Part shown: piece after piece, positions 1,542 to 20,785 of the stretch
How positions within the stretch are numbered: the first letter of the stretch is position 1
How the letters are laid out: each line of letters starts with the position of its first letter
Source: a virus
Taxonomy: Duplodnaviria; Caudoviricetes
Reading direction: 5' to 3' (one strand)
Length of the DNA stretch: 36,633 nucleotides
IMG/VR virus record: IMGVR_UViG_3300021962_000290
Span: 1 to 36,633 of that record
Notes under the pieces: generated by a model
What the model was told of the DNA's origin: nothing
Databases searched by the model: none
Seen by the model: only the letters and a program-made list of their open reading frames with translations
Made by a program: the position numbers and the translations under genes

Positions 1542-1807
1542 TGAATCAGTCTCCCAACAATCTTTGCTTTCAGGATTTCATTCACATCACGTTCCTGCTT
1601 TAGTTTCAAACTGAGAATAACAACGCCAATGGTCATGCAAAGGATAATGGTCATGGTGATCAGAAGCCCAACCATGAGGGCAGTGCGTTCTGCTGATGCA
1701 ATCGGATCGTCCACAATATCCCCCACAGTTCGAGAGCGAGAACCAGAAACACCGCGAGTCCCATTAGGTTGTCTTTGATTGCGTTGCGGATTCTGTCTCG
1801 TCGCCAT
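1532..1807 (-). CDS. Hypothetical single-TM protein (start uncertain)
   Basis: Hydrophobic LMVGLLITMTIILCMTIGVVIL; fills the gap in the lysis cassette but overlaps the upstream gene. Confidence 0.5.
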   Translation of the reverse strand: MATRQNPQRNQRQPNGTRGVSGSRSRTVGDIVDDPIASAERTALMVGLLITMTIILCMTIGVVILSLKLKQERDVNEILKAKIVGRLIQCP

Positions 1808-2352
1808 CTGGCTTCTCTGTCTTTCACCAATTGTTTTCGCCTGGCCTCAGTCTGCTCCTCCAGTGTTTGCTCCCACATACTATTGAACCTGGTCCACAGA
1901 TCACCTAACTCCTGCGGAGTATTCCAGGTCATCTGTGTCCTGATTTCAGCGTGCATCTGTTCCAACCTTGATCTAATCAACACCCTGTTGAGAGCCATGC
2001 GTTTCAAAGAACCATCCTTGTCGTCATGTACCTCGTGAGCCTTTCGCTCCTGCTCGTGGAATGCTGCCTCAATCTTGTCCATCGAGTCAAAGAACTCACC
2101 CAACTGCTGGCCTATCTGTGAGATCACATCGCCAGGATCAGTGTGTGATGCGTCCTTGACTCGTTGCTTCTCCTCCTCGATCTGCTTTGCTTGCTCTTTG
2201 CTTACAGTCTTACCAGCAAACTGTTTGTCAATGTCCTTCAGTACGTCCTTGACGTTACCCGCTACACCCTTTACTTCTTTGTAAAGTTCGCAGGCTTTCT
2301 TGATCCCTTTGACAGCGGCAGATGCCGCCGCCATGATGGTGAAGGGGTCCAC
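1660..2352 (-). CDS. Hypothetical coiled-coil protein with C-terminal TM
   Basis: 230 aa ORF, GTG start, MDPFTIMAAASAAVKGIK N-terminus, C-terminal hydrophobic helix. Confidence 0.75.
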   Translation of the reverse strand: MDPFTIMAAASAAVKGIKKACELYKEVKGVAGNVKDVLKDIDKQFAGKTVSKEQAKQIEEEKQRVKDASHTDPGDVISQIGQQLGEFFDSMDKIEAAFHEQERKAHEVHDDKDGSLKRMALNRVLIRSRLEQMHAEIRTQMTWNTPQELGDLWTRFNSMWEQTLEEQTEARRKQLVKDREARWRRDRIRNAIKDNLMGLAVFLVLALELWGILWTIRLHQQNALPSWLGF

Positions 2353-2353
2353 A

Positions 2354-2518
2354 TCATCTGTGTATTGATGACCAAATAACGCCAGCCATTCCGCACAACA
2401 TCACACCAGCAGCCTTGATGATGATCCCTTCAAGTCGTTTCAAACGAGCATTGATCTGTTCGTAGCGGTGGGCACAAACAGCTTCATGCGTGTTCAACTT
2501 TGCTTCAATATCATTCAC
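2354..2518 (-). CDS. Small XhlA-like coiled-coil/TM lysis-associated protein
   Basis: GTG at 2518; HEAVCAHRYEQINARLKRLE followed by a TM helix. Confidence 0.65.
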   Translation of the reverse strand: MNDIEAKLNTHEAVCAHRYEQINARLKRLEGIIIKAAGVMLCGMAGVIWSSIHR

Positions 2519-2532
2519 GATAAACACCACTC

Positions 2533-3405
2533 TTAGAATGTGATTGAACCAGATGCGGTCCATCTGTAAATGCGGAATCCACCAGACACCGTGACGGTCG
2601 GTGAACCAGTCGTGGATACGGCTGCGGCATATAGATCAGGGTAACGGATGATTACGATGCCAGAACCTCCATTGCCGCCTGAATTTCCATAACCACCACC
2701 GCCACCACCACCGCCTGTATTGGCTGTTCCAGCAGTTCCATTAGTAGAACCAGAACCTGCGCCCCCGCCGCCAGCACCTCCAGCACCTCCGGCAGTTTGG
2801 TATCCACCACCACCACCTCCAGCATAAGCTGTGCGAGTTCCAGAAATATCTGATGCAATACCAGCACCTCCACTTCCGTTAACACTTGGCCCTCCGCTTA
2901 AACCAACAGTGCCTGCACCGCCACCGCCTCCACCACCGCTATTTACGCCACCAGAACTAGATGATCCACCACCAGCATTGCCTTGACCAGATGTCCCGGC
3001 AAAACCTGCCGACGAATATCCTGAACCAGACCACACAGCACCTCCTCCTGATCCACCAGAAGAAGTGCCGCCAAGACCACCGCCAAGAGAAACAATATTT
3101 CCAGTTGTTGCTCCAGAAGATGAGGCAATCAATACAGAATTACTACCACTTGAACTATTACCAGAACCACCAGCACCAACAGTAACCCACAATTGAAGTC
3201 CTGCTGTTATTCCAGTAAATCCTGCGCGTAAACCACCTGCTCCACCGCCACCACCATAACCACCGCCAGATGAACCATAACCGCCACCACCTCCAGCAAC
3301 GACTAGGTACTCTACGTTAGGCGTAACTGATCCAGGCCAGTTGCTTTGCTTAACGGCTTGTGACGCTTGTGACAGCGTGAACATCCCGCTGTACTGTGGA
3401 GGCAT
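2533..3405 (-). CDS. Glycine-rich domain virion/tail protein (paralogue 4)
   Basis: VEYLVVAGGGGG ... GGSGIVIIRYP ... WTASGSITF. Confidence 0.85.
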   Translation of the reverse strand: MPPQYSGMFTLSQASQAVKQSNWPGSVTPNVEYLVVAGGGGGYGSSGGGYGGGGGAGGLRAGFTGITAGLQLWVTVGAGGSGNSSSGSNSVLIASSSGATTGNIVSLGGGLGGTSSGGSGGGAVWSGSGYSSAGFAGTSGQGNAGGGSSSSGGVNSGGGGGGGAGTVGLSGGPSVNGSGGAGIASDISGTRTAYAGGGGGGYQTAGGAGGAGGGGAGSGSTNGTAGTANTGGGGGGGGYGNSGGNGGSGIVIIRYPDLYAAAVSTTGSPTVTVSGGFRIYRWTASGSITF

Positions 3406-3407
3406 GA

Positions 3408-3761
3408 TTATTCTCCTGCCTGAACTTCAACCCACGCAGTCGTGGCCTCATCCCACTGATATTGTTTTCCATCAGTAGGCATTGCAGTCGGAGCATTCCA
3501 CAGACAGGTGGACTCATTCAGAACCCAGGACGGATACGGCTTGGGAGGAATGAAAGCGTCACGAACTGAGTCGTAGGTAAAGCCAACACCTGCATAGTTC
3601 TTACGCAGAGGACGACCATCAGGATGCTGGCCTCCGTGAGTGTTGTACGAGGTTTGAATCCACTCTGCCGGGTTACCCCACAGACCAGTGTTCAATGTTT
3701 GTTGGTCGATCACAATGACCTGATCGACGATTCCATTTGTAACGTGAGCGAAATGTGCCAT
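3408..3761 (-). CDS. Tail-associated protein, possible fibre assembly chaperone
   Basis: MAHFAHVTNGIVDQVIV ... LRKNYAGVGFTYD ... YQWDEATTAW; GGAG RBS; lies among fibre genes. Confidence 0.75.
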   Translation of the reverse strand: MAHFAHVTNGIVDQVIVIDQQTLNTGLWGNPAEWIQTSYNTHGGQHPDGRPLRKNYAGVGFTYDSVRDAFIPPKPYPSWVLNESTCLWNAPTAMPTDGKQYQWDEATTAWVEVQAGE

Positions 3762-3770
3762 GTTGACTCC

Positions 3771-4652
3771 TTAGAAAGTGATAGAACCAGATGAGGTCCA
3801 GGTGTAGATTTGATACCCGCCAGCATAGCTGACTTGAGGGCTTCCAGTGGTTGCTGTTGGAGGGCTTGCAGTTGCAGGATAGCGGATGATTACGATGCCT
3901 GAACCGCCTGATCCCCCTGCGCCTGCACTTGCGCCGCCAGCGCCAGCGACTCCGCCACCGCCGGATCCTGTATTTGCTATTGCTGGACTACCGCTTAAAG
4001 TACCAGTGGTTCCTCCACTGCCATTGCCCCCACCAGCGACTCCTAACCCACCAATTGTTGCTCCAGATGCATAATATCCGCCTCCACCGCCTCCGGCATA
4101 TTGGATAGGACTTCCAGAGATTGTTGAATTTATCCCCGCCCCGCCATTTCCTGCGCCATTTGCACTTCCGTTAGTTCCAACAGAGCCTGCGCCACCCCCG
4201 CCTCCGCCGCCAAAAAGCGTACTGCCATTGCCTCCGCCAGAACCTCCGGCATTTCCTTGACCAGATGTTCCTGAACCGCCGGAAGCCGACCCAACACTAT
4301 TTCCCCCGCCTCCAGATCCACCAGATTGGCCAGTAGTCGCACCCGCTCCGCCCCCACCTGTAGCCGTTATTGAACTGAATACCGAGTTTGAACCACTTGT
4401 TGCCGCAGCAGCACTTCCTACCGCACTTCCAGCACCTCCGGCACCAACAGTTACTGTCAGCGCAGAACCAGAAGCTACAGCAAACGCAGCGGCTTGAAGA
4501 ACACCTCCTGCTCCCCCTCCACCGCCAGGTCCACCAGATGATCCTTGGTTTCCGCCACCACCCCCGGCGACAACAAGATACTCCACCGTAGCTGGAGCAC
4601 CAGCTAAGGGGTTAAAGGTTGCAGAGATCACGCCACCAAGTCTGTCACTCAT
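3771..4652 (-). CDS. Glycine-rich domain virion/tail protein (paralogue 3)
   Basis: Same motif set as 2533..3405. Confidence 0.85.
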   Translation of the reverse strand: MSDRLGGVISATFNPLAGAPATVEYLVVAGGGGGNQGSSGGPGGGGGAGGVLQAAAFAVASGSALTVTVGAGGAGSAVGSAAAATSGSNSVFSSITATGGGGAGATTGQSGGSGGGGNSVGSASGGSGTSGQGNAGGSGGGNGSTLFGGGGGGGAGSVGTNGSANGAGNGGAGINSTISGSPIQYAGGGGGGYYASGATIGGLGVAGGGNGSGGTTGTLSGSPAIANTGSGGGGVAGAGGASAGAGGSGGSGIVIIRYPATASPPTATTGSPQVSYAGGYQIYTWTSSGSITF

Positions 4653-4661
4653 ATTAAATCC

Positions 4662-6221
4662 TTAGAACGTGATTGATCCGCTAGATGTCCAGGTATACAC
4701 CCGGTTCTTGTAGCCAAGACCTGTCGAGAATGGGGATAGTTGGTTCCATGCAGGAGTTCCAGTCACAGAACTTATTGCGTAACTGTTGGTTGAACTGTCT
4801 GCAAGGAATGATCCAGAAACTGCGTTCAGCAGCAAAGAGGTTTGATTTCCAGTAATTGCAGAGATGTTTGTACCAGCAGCTTGAGTAGCTTGCAAAGGAG
4901 CCGTGGGTGCAGTAAAGTTTCCTGTGTAAACACACACACCTTTTGTTACACGCAAATTGCTCATGTAAAAAGCCCCAGTAGAACCTGGACTACTGCCATT
5001 ACCACCAACAGTTGGCCTACCAGACCCAACAAGATAGTTGTTTGAATCAGTATATGTGCTACCTGCTTGAGTACCATTGATATACATCTTTGTGCTTGTA
5101 CCTGTACGACAAACTGCAATGTGATACCAAGTTGAAGTATTCAATACATTTCCAGTAATTGCATCGGCAGAGTTTGTAAAGAAAAAAATTCTTCCAGTGC
5201 TTAAACAATATACTGTTGGATAAATTCCGTTTGTTGCATTTGGACGACAATCAAACAAAATAGGACCACCACCAAAAGAGGTGGCATAAATCCAAAATTC
5301 GATTGTGAAATCACCAGTACCAAAAGCAAAAGGAGTTTGAGCGTTGTAACTGAAATACGACGATCCATTAAAATACACGCTCCCAGACCCGCTTGTGCTT
5401 ACAGTCGGTGAACCTGTCGTAGATGTTGCGGCAGCATAGGTGTCTGGGTAAGAGATGATGACAATGCCAGAGCCTCCAGCACCACCTGCATAATGACTTG
5501 CGGCATATCCAGAACCGCCACCGCCGCCACCAGTATTAACTGAACCTGAAGTTGCCGTGGCTCCAACAGAACCTGCACCGCCTCCTCCCGCACCTCCTGC
5601 TCCAGCAGTTCCAGAAGAATAAACCCCTCCGCCGCCACCGCCCGAATAGGTCGTTCGTGTACCAGAGATGTCGGAGGCAATTCCAGCTCCTCCGTTACCT
5701 GCAACAGTGGTAGATGTGGCATTTAAACCTACCGTACCTGCGCCACCACCACCGCCGTTTGGAATGTTTAAAGCTGTTCCATATGCGTTTCCACCAACAT
5801 TTCCTTGTCCAAAAGTTCCTTGTCCCCCTAAAAGAGTTGAACTGCTAACAGAAGACCCTCCACCGCCAGAACCACCCGAAGCACCTGCATTATTTGCAGA
5901 ACCATATCCACCACCTAAAGAAGTTACAGAACCAAATACAGAATTATTTCCATTTGTCTGTGCAGAAGTTGAACTTGCAGAACCAGCAGTTCCACCAGAA
6001 CCAACAGTAACAGTAATAGCCGATCCAGCTACAACAGGAATGTTTCCCTGAAGAAATCCACCGGCTCCGCCGCCTGAACCGGACCCATTGGTATAAGACC
6101 CGCCACCGCCGCCACCTCCAGCGACAACAAGGTAGTTAACAGCAGGAGTCTTCTGACCAGTCCATGCTCTTTGCTGAATCGCACTAAGATGCTGCTTTAG
6201 ATTGAATAGTCCGTTAGGCAT
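4662..6221 (-). CDS. Glycine-rich domain protein with inserted LamG/concanavalin A-like lectin domain (paralogue 2)
   Basis: Gly-rich core plus GTGDFTIEFWIY, WYHIAVCR, MYING and YMSNLRVTKG motifs. Confidence 0.85.
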   Translation of the reverse strand: MPNGLFNLKQHLSAIQQRAWTGQKTPAVNYLVVAGGGGGGGSYTNGSGSGGGAGGFLQGNIPVVAGSAITVTVGSGGTAGSASSTSAQTNGNNSVFGSVTSLGGGYGSANNAGASGGSGGGGSSVSSSTLLGGQGTFGQGNVGGNAYGTALNIPNGGGGGAGTVGLNATSTTVAGNGGAGIASDISGTRTTYSGGGGGGVYSSGTAGAGGAGGGGAGSVGATATSGSVNTGGGGGGSGYAASHYAGGAGGSGIVIISYPDTYAAATSTTGSPTVSTSGSGSVYFNGSSYFSYNAQTPFAFGTGDFTIEFWIYATSFGGGPILFDCRPNATNGIYPTVYCLSTGRIFFFTNSADAITGNVLNTSTWYHIAVCRTGTSTKMYINGTQAGSTYTDSNNYLVGSGRPTVGGNGSSPGSTGAFYMSNLRVTKGVCVYTGNFTAPTAPLQATQAAGTNISAITGNQTSLLLNAVSGSFLADSSTNSYAISSVTGTPAWNQLSPFSTGLGYKNRVYTWTSSGSITF

Positions 6222-6229
6222 ACGTCACC

Positions 6230-7084
6230 TTAGAATGTGATTGATCCAGAACTCGTGAATACATACACGCGGTGTTGACCAGCAATGTATGTTCGTGGAG
6301 AACCTGTCGTGGATGATGCTGGTGCAAGATATGCTGGATAGCGAAGCACTACGATGCCAGAGCCGCCTGCTGCTCCTGGTTGAGATGTAGATGCTGTTAA
6401 ACCAGCACCAGCTCCGCCACCGCCACCAGTGTTTGCAAAACCTGTTGTAGCAGAAATGATTGCAGTTGAAAAACCAGCGCCACCGTTACCACCACCACCT
6501 GCACCATAGGAAACAAAATAACCAGCGCCTCCACCACCACCAGCATACTGGATTTGACTTCCTGTTATGGAAGAAACAACACCTGCTCCACCTGCTCCAC
6601 CTGCAACACTTGCCGCAATTGAAGCAACTCCAGCACTTCCTGCACCACCCCCACCGCCACCACCATAACCGCCTGCTGCCGTAGCACCACCAGCATTGCC
6701 TTGACCAGATGTTCCTGTGCCTGAAGATGCGCCGCCAGAACCTCCGGTTCCGCCAGTACCAGTGGAGTAATTACCATAACCACCACCAGTTGCAGTAATA
6801 CTTCCAAATACAGAATTTGAACCTGCTGTACCAGCACTACTGGCAGACGCACCACCAGCACCACCAGCGCCAACAGTAACTGTAATTGATGAACCTTGAG
6901 TTACCGCATAACCAAATGCAGTCAATAAACCGCCCGCTCCTCCTCCGCCACCAGAGTTACTGTTTGCATTAGCACTTGCGCCACCCCCTCCACCAGCGAC
7001 GACTAGATATTCGACCTGCGTGACAGGATTGCTGATTCCATCGAAACCAGCATTCTTAATTCCACCAGGATATTTCAAGGACAT
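6230..7084 (-). CDS. Glycine-rich domain virion/tail protein (paralogue 1)
   Basis: Same motif set; GGAGG RBS. Confidence 0.85.
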   Translation of the reverse strand: MSLKYPGGIKNAGFDGISNPVTQVEYLVVAGGGGGASANANSNSGGGGGAGGLLTAFGYAVTQGSSITVTVGAGGAGGASASSAGTAGSNSVFGSITATGGGYGNYSTGTGGTGGSGGASSGTGTSGQGNAGGATAAGGYGGGGGGGAGSAGVASIAASVAGGAGGAGVVSSITGSQIQYAGGGGGAGYFVSYGAGGGGNGGAGFSTAIISATTGFANTGGGGGAGAGLTASTSQPGAAGGSGIVVLRYPAYLAPASSTTGSPRTYIAGQHRVYVFTSSGSITF

Positions 7085-18381: not shown

Positions 18382-19224
18382 TTATTCGCGGCAGGTAATG
18401 GCAACAATACCACCAGCGTCGATAGCGATAGCGCCAGCGGAGAACATCGAGGCAACCAACCACGAGGTCTTCTCGGGGATGTAGTTGATCTCGCTACGCA
18501 CAGCCATTGCTTCAGCCATACCGACAGACATCTTGTGGTAAGCGTAGACGGTACGGTCAGAACCAGAGCCGCCGCCAGTCAAACCACCTTCAGTGCGGTC
18601 ACCAATCACGTTGAACGTAAAGCCCATGAACGTGTTGATCTCGCCCTGCACCAGAGCCTTCACGCTGTTGAAGTCGCTGGAGGTCACTTGCGTTTCCGAC
18701 AGCAGGTTCGACAGTTGCGAAGCGTGCATGACAATGTAGCGCTCTTCCATCGGCACGTTGTTAGCGTTCATCAAACGCTGTGCTTCACGGAGTTTAGCCA
18801 TGTTCATGTTGGTCGTAGCACCACCAATGCTGTTAGCCACGGTCAGGGACGTACCCGAACCAGCCAGAGCATCAATGATCATTTGATCGCTACGACGACC
18901 AATAGCCTTGGCAACCACTTGCACCAGTTCTTGGCGCTCGTCAAAGTTGACTTTGGCTTGGTTGAAAATGTCGCTGTATTCAGCAGCAATGTAGTCCGTG
19001 AGAGTCACGGTTGCTTGCGAATAGGTGACGTTCAGCGGGGTCACATCGGTTTGCGGAACGCGAACCTGGGCAACGCCTGAGCCGATCTTGGGGAACTTGT
19101 GGGTAGACGCAGTAACGCCAGTGCGAAGACGGACAGTGTTACGCAGCACAGCATCAGCTTGATATGCCTGCTTAACTTCCGTATCGAACAGGGTTACAAA
19201 TGCGTTAGAAATGCTAACAGCCAT
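18382..19224 (-). CDS. Major capsid protein
   Basis: AFVTLFDTEVKQAYQ, TSSDFNSVKALVQGEINTFMGFTF; AGGAG RBS. Confidence 0.9.
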   Translation of the reverse strand: MAVSISNAFVTLFDTEVKQAYQADAVLRNTVRLRTGVTASTHKFPKIGSGVAQVRVPQTDVTPLNVTYSQATVTLTDYIAAEYSDIFNQAKVNFDERQELVQVVAKAIGRRSDQMIIDALAGSGTSLTVANSIGGATTNMNMAKLREAQRLMNANNVPMEERYIVMHASQLSNLLSETQVTSSDFNSVKALVQGEINTFMGFTFNVIGDRTEGGLTGGGSGSDRTVYAYHKMSVGMAEAMAVRSEINYIPEKTSWLVASMFSAGAIAIDAGGIVAITCRE

Positions 19225-19362
19225 TTGTTTTCTCCTGAAAACGGTTGATAAAGAGTTTTATCGCCGCTGGTTATCCAGATCGCTCCGGGCCGTGACTTGT
19301 GCCTTACAGCGCACCCCTGGGCTGATCACAGCCATCATGGGCCTTTCGGTTGTCCATGGCCC
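19225..19362 (-). promoter_or_regulatory. Structured 5' leader of the capsid gene
   Basis: Tandem hairpins GGGCC/GGCCC, GCTG-TGAT-CAGC, GTGC/GCAC, CTGG-ATAA-CCAG, GATAAA-ACTC-TTTATC. Confidence 0.55.
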
Positions 19363-19363
19363 G

Positions 19364-19390
19364 ATTATAAGCATTTTGTGTACTTGTCAA
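19364..19390 (-). promoter_or_regulatory. Sigma70-type promoter for capsid genes (short spacer)
   Basis: TTGACA-N15-TATAAT with an A-tract upstream. Confidence 0.6.
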
Positions 19391-19407
19391 GCATTTTTTT
19401 TAACATA

Positions 19408-19650
19408 AGTTCCCCAAGGGTGGATAGCCTGGTATCCATTCCCTCTCCCGCAGGGACTATCTCGTAGTCCAGCCAGAGTACCCATGAGGCAGCGATTCAT
19501 CCAGTATGGCGCTTGTCCCACCGCTTTCACCATACCTACCCTAGTCCCTCGCTGACAGGCTAGTCGGAATACTTGGGGGTGTACCAAGTCCGGTGTTTCT
19601 CGGGTTCAGTCCATGCAGACCATCAGCTAACGCGCCCTGACGGTTGTCTA
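19408..19650 (-). ncRNA. Putative structured RNA domain, ~240 nt, pseudoknotted
   Basis: At least six hand-found helices plus a loop CAGCGA/TCGCTG pairing; no credible ORF. Confidence 0.6.
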
Positions 19651-19662
19651 AACTGCTTTGAA

Positions 19663-19823
19663 TTGACCCCTAGACCGCCTCCCTCATTCGGTCACATTTC
19701 GCCTGGTATACGTTCAGGTTAGAGGTACGTTACTTGGTCACTACTTGGGGTTGGCCTCTCCAACTCGAATGCCCTAAGTCACTGTATGCCTACAGTGCTG
19801 TTCATGATTGCTAACAGGGTCAA
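19663..19823 (-). ncRNA. Putative closed multi-stem RNA domain, ~160 nt
   Basis: Closing stem TTGACCC/GGGTCAA, GNRA hairpin CACTGTA-GGCA-TACAGTG, two candidate pseudoknots. Confidence 0.6.
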
Positions 19824-19842
19824 ATCAAAACAGTCTGCATAA

Positions 19843-19940
19843 ACAAAAAAGCCACTTACTACTGCATCCGGGTTGCACCCCCAGTGACCTGGGGCCAGAC
19901 GCATGAGTAAGCGGCTTCATCTGTTGTGTGCAACGACAAC
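19843..19940 (-). ncRNA. C4-antisense-like RNA with upstream complementary target hairpin
   Basis: Long stem AAGCCGCTTACT/AGTAAGTGGCTT plus U-tract; single-stranded GTGCAAC complementary to GTTGCAC in the upstream loop. Confidence 0.6.
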
Positions 19941-19947
19941 GGTTGTG

Positions 19948-19975
19948 ATTATGCCAAAAAAAAGACCCCTGTCAA
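19948..19975 (-). promoter_or_regulatory. Sigma70-type promoter for the RNA cassette
   Basis: TTGACA-N16-CATAAT with TG extended -10. Confidence 0.65.
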
Positions 19976-20005: not shown

Positions 20006-20785
20006 TTACCTAGCAGGACCAGGATACATCTTCTCATAGAGCTTTTCAACCTTGGCACGATAGGCAGGATTTGAATAGTATTCAGGTGTTCCAACCATTG
20101 CGTCCAATTCTTCCTTGGATACGCTGCCTTCAGTGTCGGATTTGAGCGTTTCCACAGGAACCCTGCCCTCATAGGTCTGGCGCAGCTTAGAAAGGGCTTT
20201 GATGCCCTTGGCGGTGTCACCCCACTTGGTGAACTCCTGGAACTCCTCCTGGCTCCAGATGCCCTTCTGGACCATGCCACGACCCCAGGTAGCCATGTCA
20301 GCAATCACAGCCTTGGCGTTTGGCCCCAAAGCCTCCAGTTCTGCTTGCATATTGATCTGGGCAGACTCCATGTTTCGTCCGCCGATCTCGTTGACACTAC
20401 GAGCCAGTTCCTCAAAGGCAGACTGAGAGATACCGTACTTCTGTGCCCAACCCACATAAGCACTGACCACCGGGTCATCTGCTTTGAGATTAAGACTTTC
20501 TAACTCATATTTGCCATCTTCAGGGGGTTTATGGCCTCCTGCTCGGAACTTCTTTTCAAGTTCTACATAAGACTTGCTGATTCCCTCCAGATCAGGCTCT
20601 GCGCTCTCTTTGTTCCAGAACTTCTCAGGCCAGAAATCGGGGCGCTCTAGGGGGCCATCATCAGCATTAGGATCAGGATTGGTGTGACTGATGCTTTGCT
20701 CATGGCCCTCGGTTGTCTGCCCTTCTGCATCGCCTTCAGCGGCGGCTGCTTCCAGCAGGCCAGGGTTGTCATTTGCTTCGCTCAT
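20006..20785 (-). CDS. Capsid scaffolding protein
   Basis: Acidic; RPDFWPEKFW, SYVELEKK, C-terminal YYSNPAYRAKVEK. Confidence 0.8.
   Translation of the reverse strand: MSEANDNPGLLEAAAAEGDAEGQTTEGHEQSISHTNPDPNADDGPLERPDFWPEKFWNKESAEPDLEGISKSYVELEKKFRAGGHKPPEDGKYELESLNLKADDPVVSAYVGWAQKYGISQSAFEELARSVNEIGGRNMESAQINMQAELEALGPNAKAVIADMATWGRGMVQKGIWSQEEFQEFTKWGDTAKGIKALSKLRQTYEGRVPVETLKSDTEGSVSKEELDAMVGTPEYYSNPAYRAKVEKLYEKMYPGPAR

Follow-up and report, generated by a model that had tools for sequence, protein, structure and literature searches.

The window, the complete 36.6-kb podophage-type viral record analysed here (36,633 nt), carries a structured RNA on the minus strand of a 781-nt gap flanked by ORF 20006-20785 on one side and the major capsid gene (18382-19224) on the other. 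The ORF is scaffold-like by position only and has no PHROG match, and the capsid protein shares 65% identity with its counterpart in Methylophilales phage MEP301. Among the loci listed from the 80 that were fetched with the capsid protein, the scaffold-capsid gap usually spans 150-270 nt, indicating that most of the 781 nt in the window is accessory. The RNA begins directly behind the U-tract of an upstream element, module B, which lies outside the RNA family (Table 1). A near-consensus promoter is found 110 nt upstream of the RNA, beyond the U-tract hairpin, and is the likely source of its transcript. ARAGORN and Rfam detected no tRNA in the window, Rfam assigned no family to any part of it, and no reverse transcriptase was present among the 38 window proteins scanned; UG27 arrays, which require this enzyme according to the accessible part of bioRxiv 10.64898/2026.09.22.753630, were ruled out on this ground.

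Module B had no match in Rfam, and we take it to be reminiscent of c4-type phage antisense RNAs. Its 7-nt pairing changed on both sides in every aligned locus (the window, L002, L004, L021, L023, L025, L038 and L133), with the variants GUUGCAC/GUGCAAC, GUGACAC/GUGUCAC, GUAGGAA/UUCCUAC and GUCGAAA/UUUCGAC. A conserved structured non-coding block (module D, window about 19440-19646, minus strand), also with no Rfam match, travels with module B and does so even to an unrelated site in L002. The capsid gene has a conserved structured leader across related loci (module E, window 19225-19390, minus strand) behind a TTGACA-15-TATAAT promoter; this leader is not Polynucleobacter-1, and the contigs covering it in four RNA runs stop or diverge near 19370-19400.

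Homologs of the RNA were first recovered by blastn in N4-like Klebsiella phages, immediately ahead of their tRNA cluster, and blastn placed the RNA in 29 cultured phage records of the Schitoviridae and Ackermannviridae. Further homologs came from pattern scans with chance matches discarded, four scans retaining 5/28, 12/12, 1/5 and 10/15 loci and the later ones 68/79, where the 11 dropped had no model match. The 68 distinct short-form members fall into two subtypes and cluster to 45, 21 and 9 groups at 90, 80 and 70% identity, so that these sequences are related and their counts overstate independence. About 50 long forms of 215-240 nt occur in unrelated phages; their scan returned 97 loci representing 70 distinct stretches, nine of them with no 5′ anchor (seven chance-like and two members missed by the script). 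Long forms retain P1, P2, the GCAA/CCRAG loop, a 2-bp P3, GAA/AGUA, GUAC, P6 and P7, and their P4/P5 region is enlarged. The covariance model R1, built on 26 short forms only, matched them weakly but significantly in 4/5 genomes, with one copy each. A single cellular copy, in a Burkholderia sp. MAG (L139), was the one true match among five pattern hits in the species-genome collection, and L139 itself was the only positive among the 151 genomes of its family, with few candidates scored per genome; no copies were found in plasmids or E. coli genomes.

The 161-nt piece delimited by the initial annotation was, on its own, no more stable than shuffled sequence (z -0.31; 76/200 shuffles as stable). 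Together with its outer stem (19648-19838), the RNA gave a z of -3.23, with 0/200 shuffles as stable. An alignment of 26 distinct short-form homologs (A1) yielded a 43-pair model with 95.7% of cells paired and 31 pairs changing on both sides, compared to 72.8% paired for shuffles and 38-49% for slid partners, a control that favours the model because the structure was derived from A1 itself, later homologs being the better test. In the window, the revised fold has an energy of -59.8 versus the minimum of -61.0, a cost of 1.2 kcal/mol with the pseudoknot uncounted. Covariation supports eight helices and one pseudoknot (Table 1).

Table 1. Features of the RNA and its upstream region in the window
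Feature	Position	Strand	Description	Evidence
Promoter	19948-19975	-	sigma-70-type, TTGACA, 16 nt, TG-CATAAT; overlaps scaffold-gene terminator	11/12 consensus matches; putative function
Module B	19840-19941	-	upstream hairpin, covarying 7-nt long-range pairing, U-tract	alignment A3
Whole cassette	19650-19836	-	RNA plus closing (carrier) duplex: 12 bp (19825-19836 with 19650-19661), U-U mismatch, then P1	folding; outer arms common to L004 and L133
P1	19663-19823	-	8 bp, UUGACCCU 19823-19816 with GGGGUCAA 19670-19663	7/8 aligned pairs change on both sides; 91.8% of cells paired; register from window fold
P2	19729-19815	-	long-range, GUUA 19815-19812 with UAAC 19732-19729	100% paired, 26/26; AU/UA swap in 7
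Internal loop beyond P2		-	GCAA 19811-19808 / CCAAG 19737-19733	
P3	19738-19807	-	UCAU 19807-19804 with GUGA 19741-19738; then GAA 19803-19801 opposite AGUA 19745-19742	94% paired; 3/4 pairs covary
P4	19780-19797	-	hairpin CACUGUA/UACAGUG, loop GGCA 19790-19787	98.5% paired
P5 and P5a (variable domain)	19747-19774	-	P5 GGG/CCC, bulge CAUUCGA 19771-19765, P5a GUUGG/CCAAC with loop AGAGG	98.7% and 92.1% paired
Invariant linker		-	GUA 19728-19726	
P6	19702-19718	-	CCUG/CAGG, loop AACGUAUAC, palindrome ACGU 19713-19710 (predicted kissing loop)	4/4 pairs covary
P7	19673-19693	-	GACCG/CGGUC, 11-nt loop AAUGAGGGAGG	100% paired; 5/5 pairs covary
Pseudoknot	19678-19725	-	CCUCU 19725-19721 with GGAGG 19682-19678 in P7 loop	93.8% paired (A1)

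The closing stem and the helices CACTGTA/TACAGTG, GGG/CCC, GTTGG/CCAAC, CCTG/CAGG and GACCG/CGGTC proposed in the initial annotation all carried compensatory changes in A1. Two other helices of that drawing fared poorly, CTGTT/AACAG being paired in 46% and ACTT/AAGT in 42% of the cells of A1, and the loop GGCA, which had been called GNRA, has C as its third base and is not GNRA by sequence; homologs have GAAA (L222) or GCAA (L189) there. Overlooked in that drawing were P2, P3, the pseudoknot listed in Table 1, the palindromic loop and the 12 bp that extend the closing stem outwards. In later homologs P2 is rewritten as GUAG/CUAC, GUGG/CCAC, GUGU/ACAC or GUAU/AUAC, and in the second subtype AU/UANNA takes the place of the whole GCAA/CCRAG internal loop. 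Beyond P3, NGUA stands opposite GAA in 64/67 parsed members, and we take this GAA/AGUA element to be a loop-E/bulged-G-type motif. The P4 loop of the 67 parsed members is GGCA-type in 41, UCGAAA-type in 23 and of other kinds in 3. At the P5 bulge, UUCRAG or UACGAG was present in 32/32 members of the window's subtype and in 10/35 of the second; its UUCRA is presumably T-loop-like. The homolog of Salmonella phage As2 (L118 1516-1687, plus strand) misses the entire P5a hairpin and keeps every other element, indicating that P5a, whose loop formed the first pseudoknot of the initial annotation, is dispensable. The closing duplex totals 20 bp in the window copy and reaches at least 15 bp in 55/66 members, with sequences unrelated between different phages and a mean of -23.8 versus -8.7 kcal/mol for shuffled partners.

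Two pseudoknots had been proposed before, AGAGG (19755-19759) with CCTCT (19721-19725) and CATTCG (19766-19771) with CGAATG (19685-19690). All four words are present at these positions, and in A1 the first pairing was found in 65.5% of cells and the second in 66.7%, below its own shuffles. Because their partners are not conserved in homologues, the refutation that the annotation itself had named, both pairings are refuted; the RNA is complex and pseudoknotted as claimed, through a pseudoknot that differs from both. The middle pair of this CCUCU/GGAGG pseudoknot was AU in 14, CG in 8 and UA in 4 sequences of A1, and Watson-Crick in 67/68 distinct members. In a held-out test, the two positions left free by the search pattern were Watson-Crick in 44/44 distinct model-positive matches, 38 of which lay outside the training alignment; the outer C-G pairs had been dictated by the pattern and do not count as independent evidence. 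Of the 68 members, 10 have A-C as the second pair and 21 have a broken fifth pair, and the pseudoknot is shortened to about 3 bp in long forms. A 5-nt partner for the CCUCU strand within the variable domain, present in only 7/68, was rejected. A candidate 3-bp AUU/AAU contact would link the P5 bulge with either the P7 loop or the stretch between P6 and P7, its bases being nearly invariant. The covariation is compatible alike with a pseudoknot formed within one molecule and between molecules.

In 56/56 distinct short-form 3′ domains, the P6 loop contains a palindrome that is perfect, spans 4-10 nt and has its centre 9-11 nt past the pseudoknot strand (at 10 in 42 of them), compared to a mean of 20 and a maximum of 32 in 2000 runs with the ten loop bases shuffled. 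Palindromes occurred in 5, 12, 24 and 5 short forms at the other four-position windows. The core tetramer varied widely: CCGG in 20, GGCC in 10, CUAG in 8, CGCG in 7, ACGU in 6, AGCU in 3, and CAUG and UGCA in 1 each. In the long forms, which were found by a pattern not covering the P6 loop, 46/46 distinct 3′ domains carried the palindrome (null mean 18.9, maximum 31) and added UCGA, making nine tetramers overall, with the position range of the palindrome chosen after sight of the sequences. In the window the palindrome measures just 4 nt (ACGU), and its centre is one base off the commonest position, as in 11/56 domains. A DNA-level role of the palindrome as an operator or restriction site was ruled out by the nine different tetramers, and the idea that the loop ACGU pairs with the invariant ACGU at 19730-19727 was discarded, since the loop differs in other members and that word does not. 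The inner two bases always form a self-complementary dinucleotide (CG, GC, UA or AU), and as adjacent bases within a single loop are unable to pair together, the pairing would have to join the loops of two molecules. A palindrome kept while its sequence changes, the behaviour of homo-oligomers of the OLE, GOLLD, ROOL and manA kind, is what every one of the 56 short-form and 46 long-form domains displayed. In the accessible part of PMC12286853, switching of the palindrome between homologs at OLE L9.3 and GOLLD L21a argues for intermolecular kissing, which cryo-EM confirms there. Two molecules of the present RNA thus likely pair through a symmetric P6 kissing loop, as judged from the comparison. 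The long forms carry a second palindrome of 8-12 nt in the P4 loop (44/44), which has few variants (CUUCGAAG in 31).

The proposal that the RNA is an independently folding module inserted as a unit was examined in an alignment of eight loci chosen for sharing both flanks (A3), together with the associated check of whether related phages lack exactly this block. They do: between conserved flanks, the block is absent from five of the eight chosen loci (L002, L021, L023, L025 and L038), where the U-tract of the upstream hairpin runs straight into the downstream element. A homolog of the window RNA occupies this place in L133, where the outer stem arms are shared as well, and L004, whose capsid protein is 273/280 identical to the window's (98%), keeps the outer closing-stem arms but holds an unrelated structured RNA of ~157 nt inside the same stem, as the proposal of a modular insertion would have it. 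L030 contains yet another, shorter insert at this site. No target-site duplication is visible. The core of the RNA gave no blastn match in any of the 80 capsid-fetched loci, and R1 had no match in the 24 of them given to it. The L004 replacement cargo (2400-2580, plus strand) ends in a T-arm-like hairpin and had neither an Rfam match nor a tRNA call. The scaffold-capsid gap of L019, L041 and L022 carries short ORFs that look HNH-like or helix-turn-helix-like by eye. As RNAs or short ORFs occupy this gap in relatives, it is a general insertion hotspot. Small-RNA arrays of repeated carrier stems with differing cargo, the window RNA being one such cargo, were observed in L121 (about 1700-2400, minus strand), L124 and L014, where they lie in the capsid gap or follow cro-like genes. 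These comparisons indicate that the RNA gene moves between unrelated phages as a cassette, by gain, loss and swap.

Elsewhere, the RNA keeps company with tRNAs. A same-strand tRNA was found within 1.3 kb in 50/68 short forms and an opposite-strand one in none, with some loci extending less than 1.3 kb per side; in 32/68 the tRNA starts within 40 nt of the last loop, and many members lie mid-array among tRNAs. Long forms have a tRNA within about 700 nt in 48/50. Co-orientation within a tRNA cluster, as for T4 RNA C and RNA D, is hence the setting of 50/68 short and 48/50 long forms and not of the window copy, which is among the 18/68 short forms with no nearby tRNA; such forms belong to early operons of other phages or to arrays of small RNAs. 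RNA run X1, a library that may include DNA, contained two short contigs of relatives (164 and 189 nt) and eight pieces on L209, some continuing into tRNA sequence. Assembled contigs of runs X3, X7 and X8 gave no coverage of the RNA, run X2 covered the flanking tRNAs only, and runs X7 and X10 had nothing on L209; none of these contigs was taken as evidence of expression.

At the gathering score, Rfam 15 placed no family over the RNA in the window or, among the matches listed, in the 14 and 20 loci scanned, and scans by E-value returned weak unrelated matches only, for L209 as for the gap in the window. Independence from manA and Polynucleobacter-1, the two known motifs named beforehand, was borne out by their covariance models: manA (RF01745; gathering 55.2 bits) matched neither the window nor any of five carrier genomes at E 10, and Polynucleobacter-1 (RF01718) had no match at E 10 in the window. 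GOLLD (RF02032) did not match over the RNA in the window, nor did the T4 rnaC/rnaD region match R1 at E 5. Literature searches, covering papers outside subscription, returned no description of this RNA; motif and contig-id searches in 4/6 files of PMC10690425 gave no match, and that set of 10,006 candidate alignments of structured RNAs may include the family. The covariation and the database comparisons identify the RNA as a real and uncatalogued structured family.

Among known systems, GOLLD and ROOL are likewise phage or prophage RNAs near tRNA islands and, with OLE, likewise have pseudoknots and no known function, as well as symmetric kissing loops with a switching palindrome of the kind predicted here, but are several hundred bases long and fold differently (accessible part of PMC12286853). 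GOLLD is also found in 2/5 carrier genomes, both giant phages, where it is encoded separately, on the strand of the long form and about 0.8 kb downstream of it (G162:C1:234282-234746 and G164:C1:305415-305881). Like the window RNA, manA is shorter than 200 nt and phage-borne, and its pseudoknot-like loop contacts proved intermolecular, forming closed oligomers (PMC2864571 and bioRxiv 10.64898/2026.07.01.735769, accessible parts); the manA contacts described there join two different loops, whereas the single loop of the window family is self-complementary. T4 RNA C (rnaC, 139 nt) and RNA D (rnaD, 119 nt) are small stable RNAs in a phage tRNA cluster with function unknown and are late RNAs, according to the accessible part of PMC9697503, but rnaC has, by eye, a T-arm-like hairpin at its end and no comparable closing duplex. 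By analogy, the window RNA would work most like the self-assembling phage tRNA-island RNAs (GOLLD, ROOL, manA) and sits like T4 RNA C and D, while belonging to the family of neither.

With P1-P7, the CCUCU/GGAGG pseudoknot, presence and absence at the window site, the tRNA-array setting and the ever-palindromic P6 loop provided by the comparison, the explanation that we favour, and regard as reasonably probable, is a two-domain pseudoknotted phage RNA, spread as a mobile cassette, likely cut from a longer transcript and likely acting in trans, as copies assembled through the kissing loop into a homodimer or larger complex. In the window, transcription would start at the promoter at 19975-19948 and read through the U-tract of module B; elsewhere, the RNA would be co-transcribed in a tRNA polycistron. 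Nucleases of the RNase III type cut double strands specifically. Release at the closing duplex could thus be achieved by a host nuclease of this type or by trimming of the flanking tRNAs, and the excised RNA would then fold and dimerize through L6. Action in trans is suggested by the varying neighbours (capsid gap, tRNA arrays, positions behind cro-like genes) and by the replacement of the RNA with other cargo. More tentatively, the assembled RNA might serve as a nuclease-resistant scaffold or a decoy for a host RNA-binding protein, with the variable P4/P5 and its T-loop-like element as an exchangeable face. Weighing against the favoured explanation are the read-through of a U-tract that the window RNA requires, its short and off-centre palindrome, the 18/68 short forms with no nearby tRNA, the relatedness of the members and the lack of the T-loop-like word in 25/35 members of the second subtype.

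A more ambitious version, in which a widespread phage RNA superfamily of 160 to 240 nt self-assembles protein-free, appears rather unlikely. P6 dimers would be joined by a second contact, either an intermolecular pseudoknot or the long-form P4-loop palindrome, into rings, cages or filaments, and the traded cassette would counter RNA-targeting defences of the host, as a scaffold or a decoy. Such higher-order assembly is made plausible by manA variants of <200 nt, which form decamers and a 60-mer cage via loop contacts between molecules (accessible part of bioRxiv 10.64898/2026.07.01.735769).

The initial annotation also saw ribozyme-like complexity in this RNA, and of this the complexity stands, while no known ribozyme family of Rfam scored even at E 10 in the window or L209. 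A new ribozyme class, self-cleaving or RNA-processing, that frees adjacent tRNAs or small RNAs as theta ribozymes do would account for the tRNA adjacency and for the invariant unpaired bases at the P1/P2/pseudoknot junction (ACGUAC, AAUG and AUGA). [quoted passage not shown] In contrast, the window RNA is larger, its covariation fold has one supported pseudoknot and no nested double one of the HDV-like kind, both of its ends lie within a long duplex, and there is no tRNA in the window. The distance to the nearest tRNA ranges from 23 nt to over 1 kb, or there is none, and cleavage leaves the varying palindrome unexplained, making a ribozyme improbable.

Nor is a cis-acting transcription or processing element, such as an antiterminator or stabiliser for the genes behind the RNA, probable. 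The window copy does follow a U-tract terminator-like hairpin directly, the RNA is the first element ahead of the tRNA cluster in N4-like phages, and it lies, by eye, behind early promoters in L121, L123 and L124. Yet many members sit in the middle of a tRNA array, close relatives have no RNA or an unrelated cargo, no downstream gene is common to the loci, and a closed duplex with a palindromic loop suits a free RNA better.

The T-loop-like UUCRA in 32/32 members of the window's subtype, GG-UUCRANN-CC in 33/44 long forms, the tRNA-array setting and the T-arm-like hairpin at the end of the L004 cargo would all suit a tRNA-elbow mimic, a monomeric decoy for host anti-tRNA defence enzymes. This possibility is very doubtful as well, since the RNA lacks an acceptor stem with CCA and was not called as a tRNA by ARAGORN or Rfam, the T-loop belongs to the most variable region and was absent from 25/35 of the second subtype by the test used, and the conserved core stays unexplained. 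Least credible is an aptamer that would sequester a small signalling compound, for instance a defence nucleotide, as the invariant GCAA/CCRAG loop and junction bases, whose conservation may resemble that of a riboswitch pocket, are contradicted by wholesale replacement of this loop with AU/UANNA in the second subtype, by the lack of any metabolic gene association and by the failure of riboswitch families to score.

The homodimer or larger trans-acting assembly that we favour bears on a small group, as few natural assemblies of RNA alone are known and no function has been assigned to any of them. The family described here combines short length with a well-supported fold, the intermolecular contact is predicted base by base, and its hosts include cultured enterobacterial phages (29 records), so that both assembly and a knock-out phenotype are directly testable. 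The window site is itself a natural experiment, with nearly identical phages carrying this RNA, another RNA or nothing at one position.

In the tail region of the window, four adjacent ORFs (2533-7084, minus strand) match one region of phrog_2295 and form a tandem paralog set. Finally, L205, L212 and L213 carry a short and a long form of the RNA within about 1 kb, and in L212 the L6 palindromes of the two forms differ (CGGCCG versus CUCGAG), a difference that would keep the two RNAs from cross-pairing.
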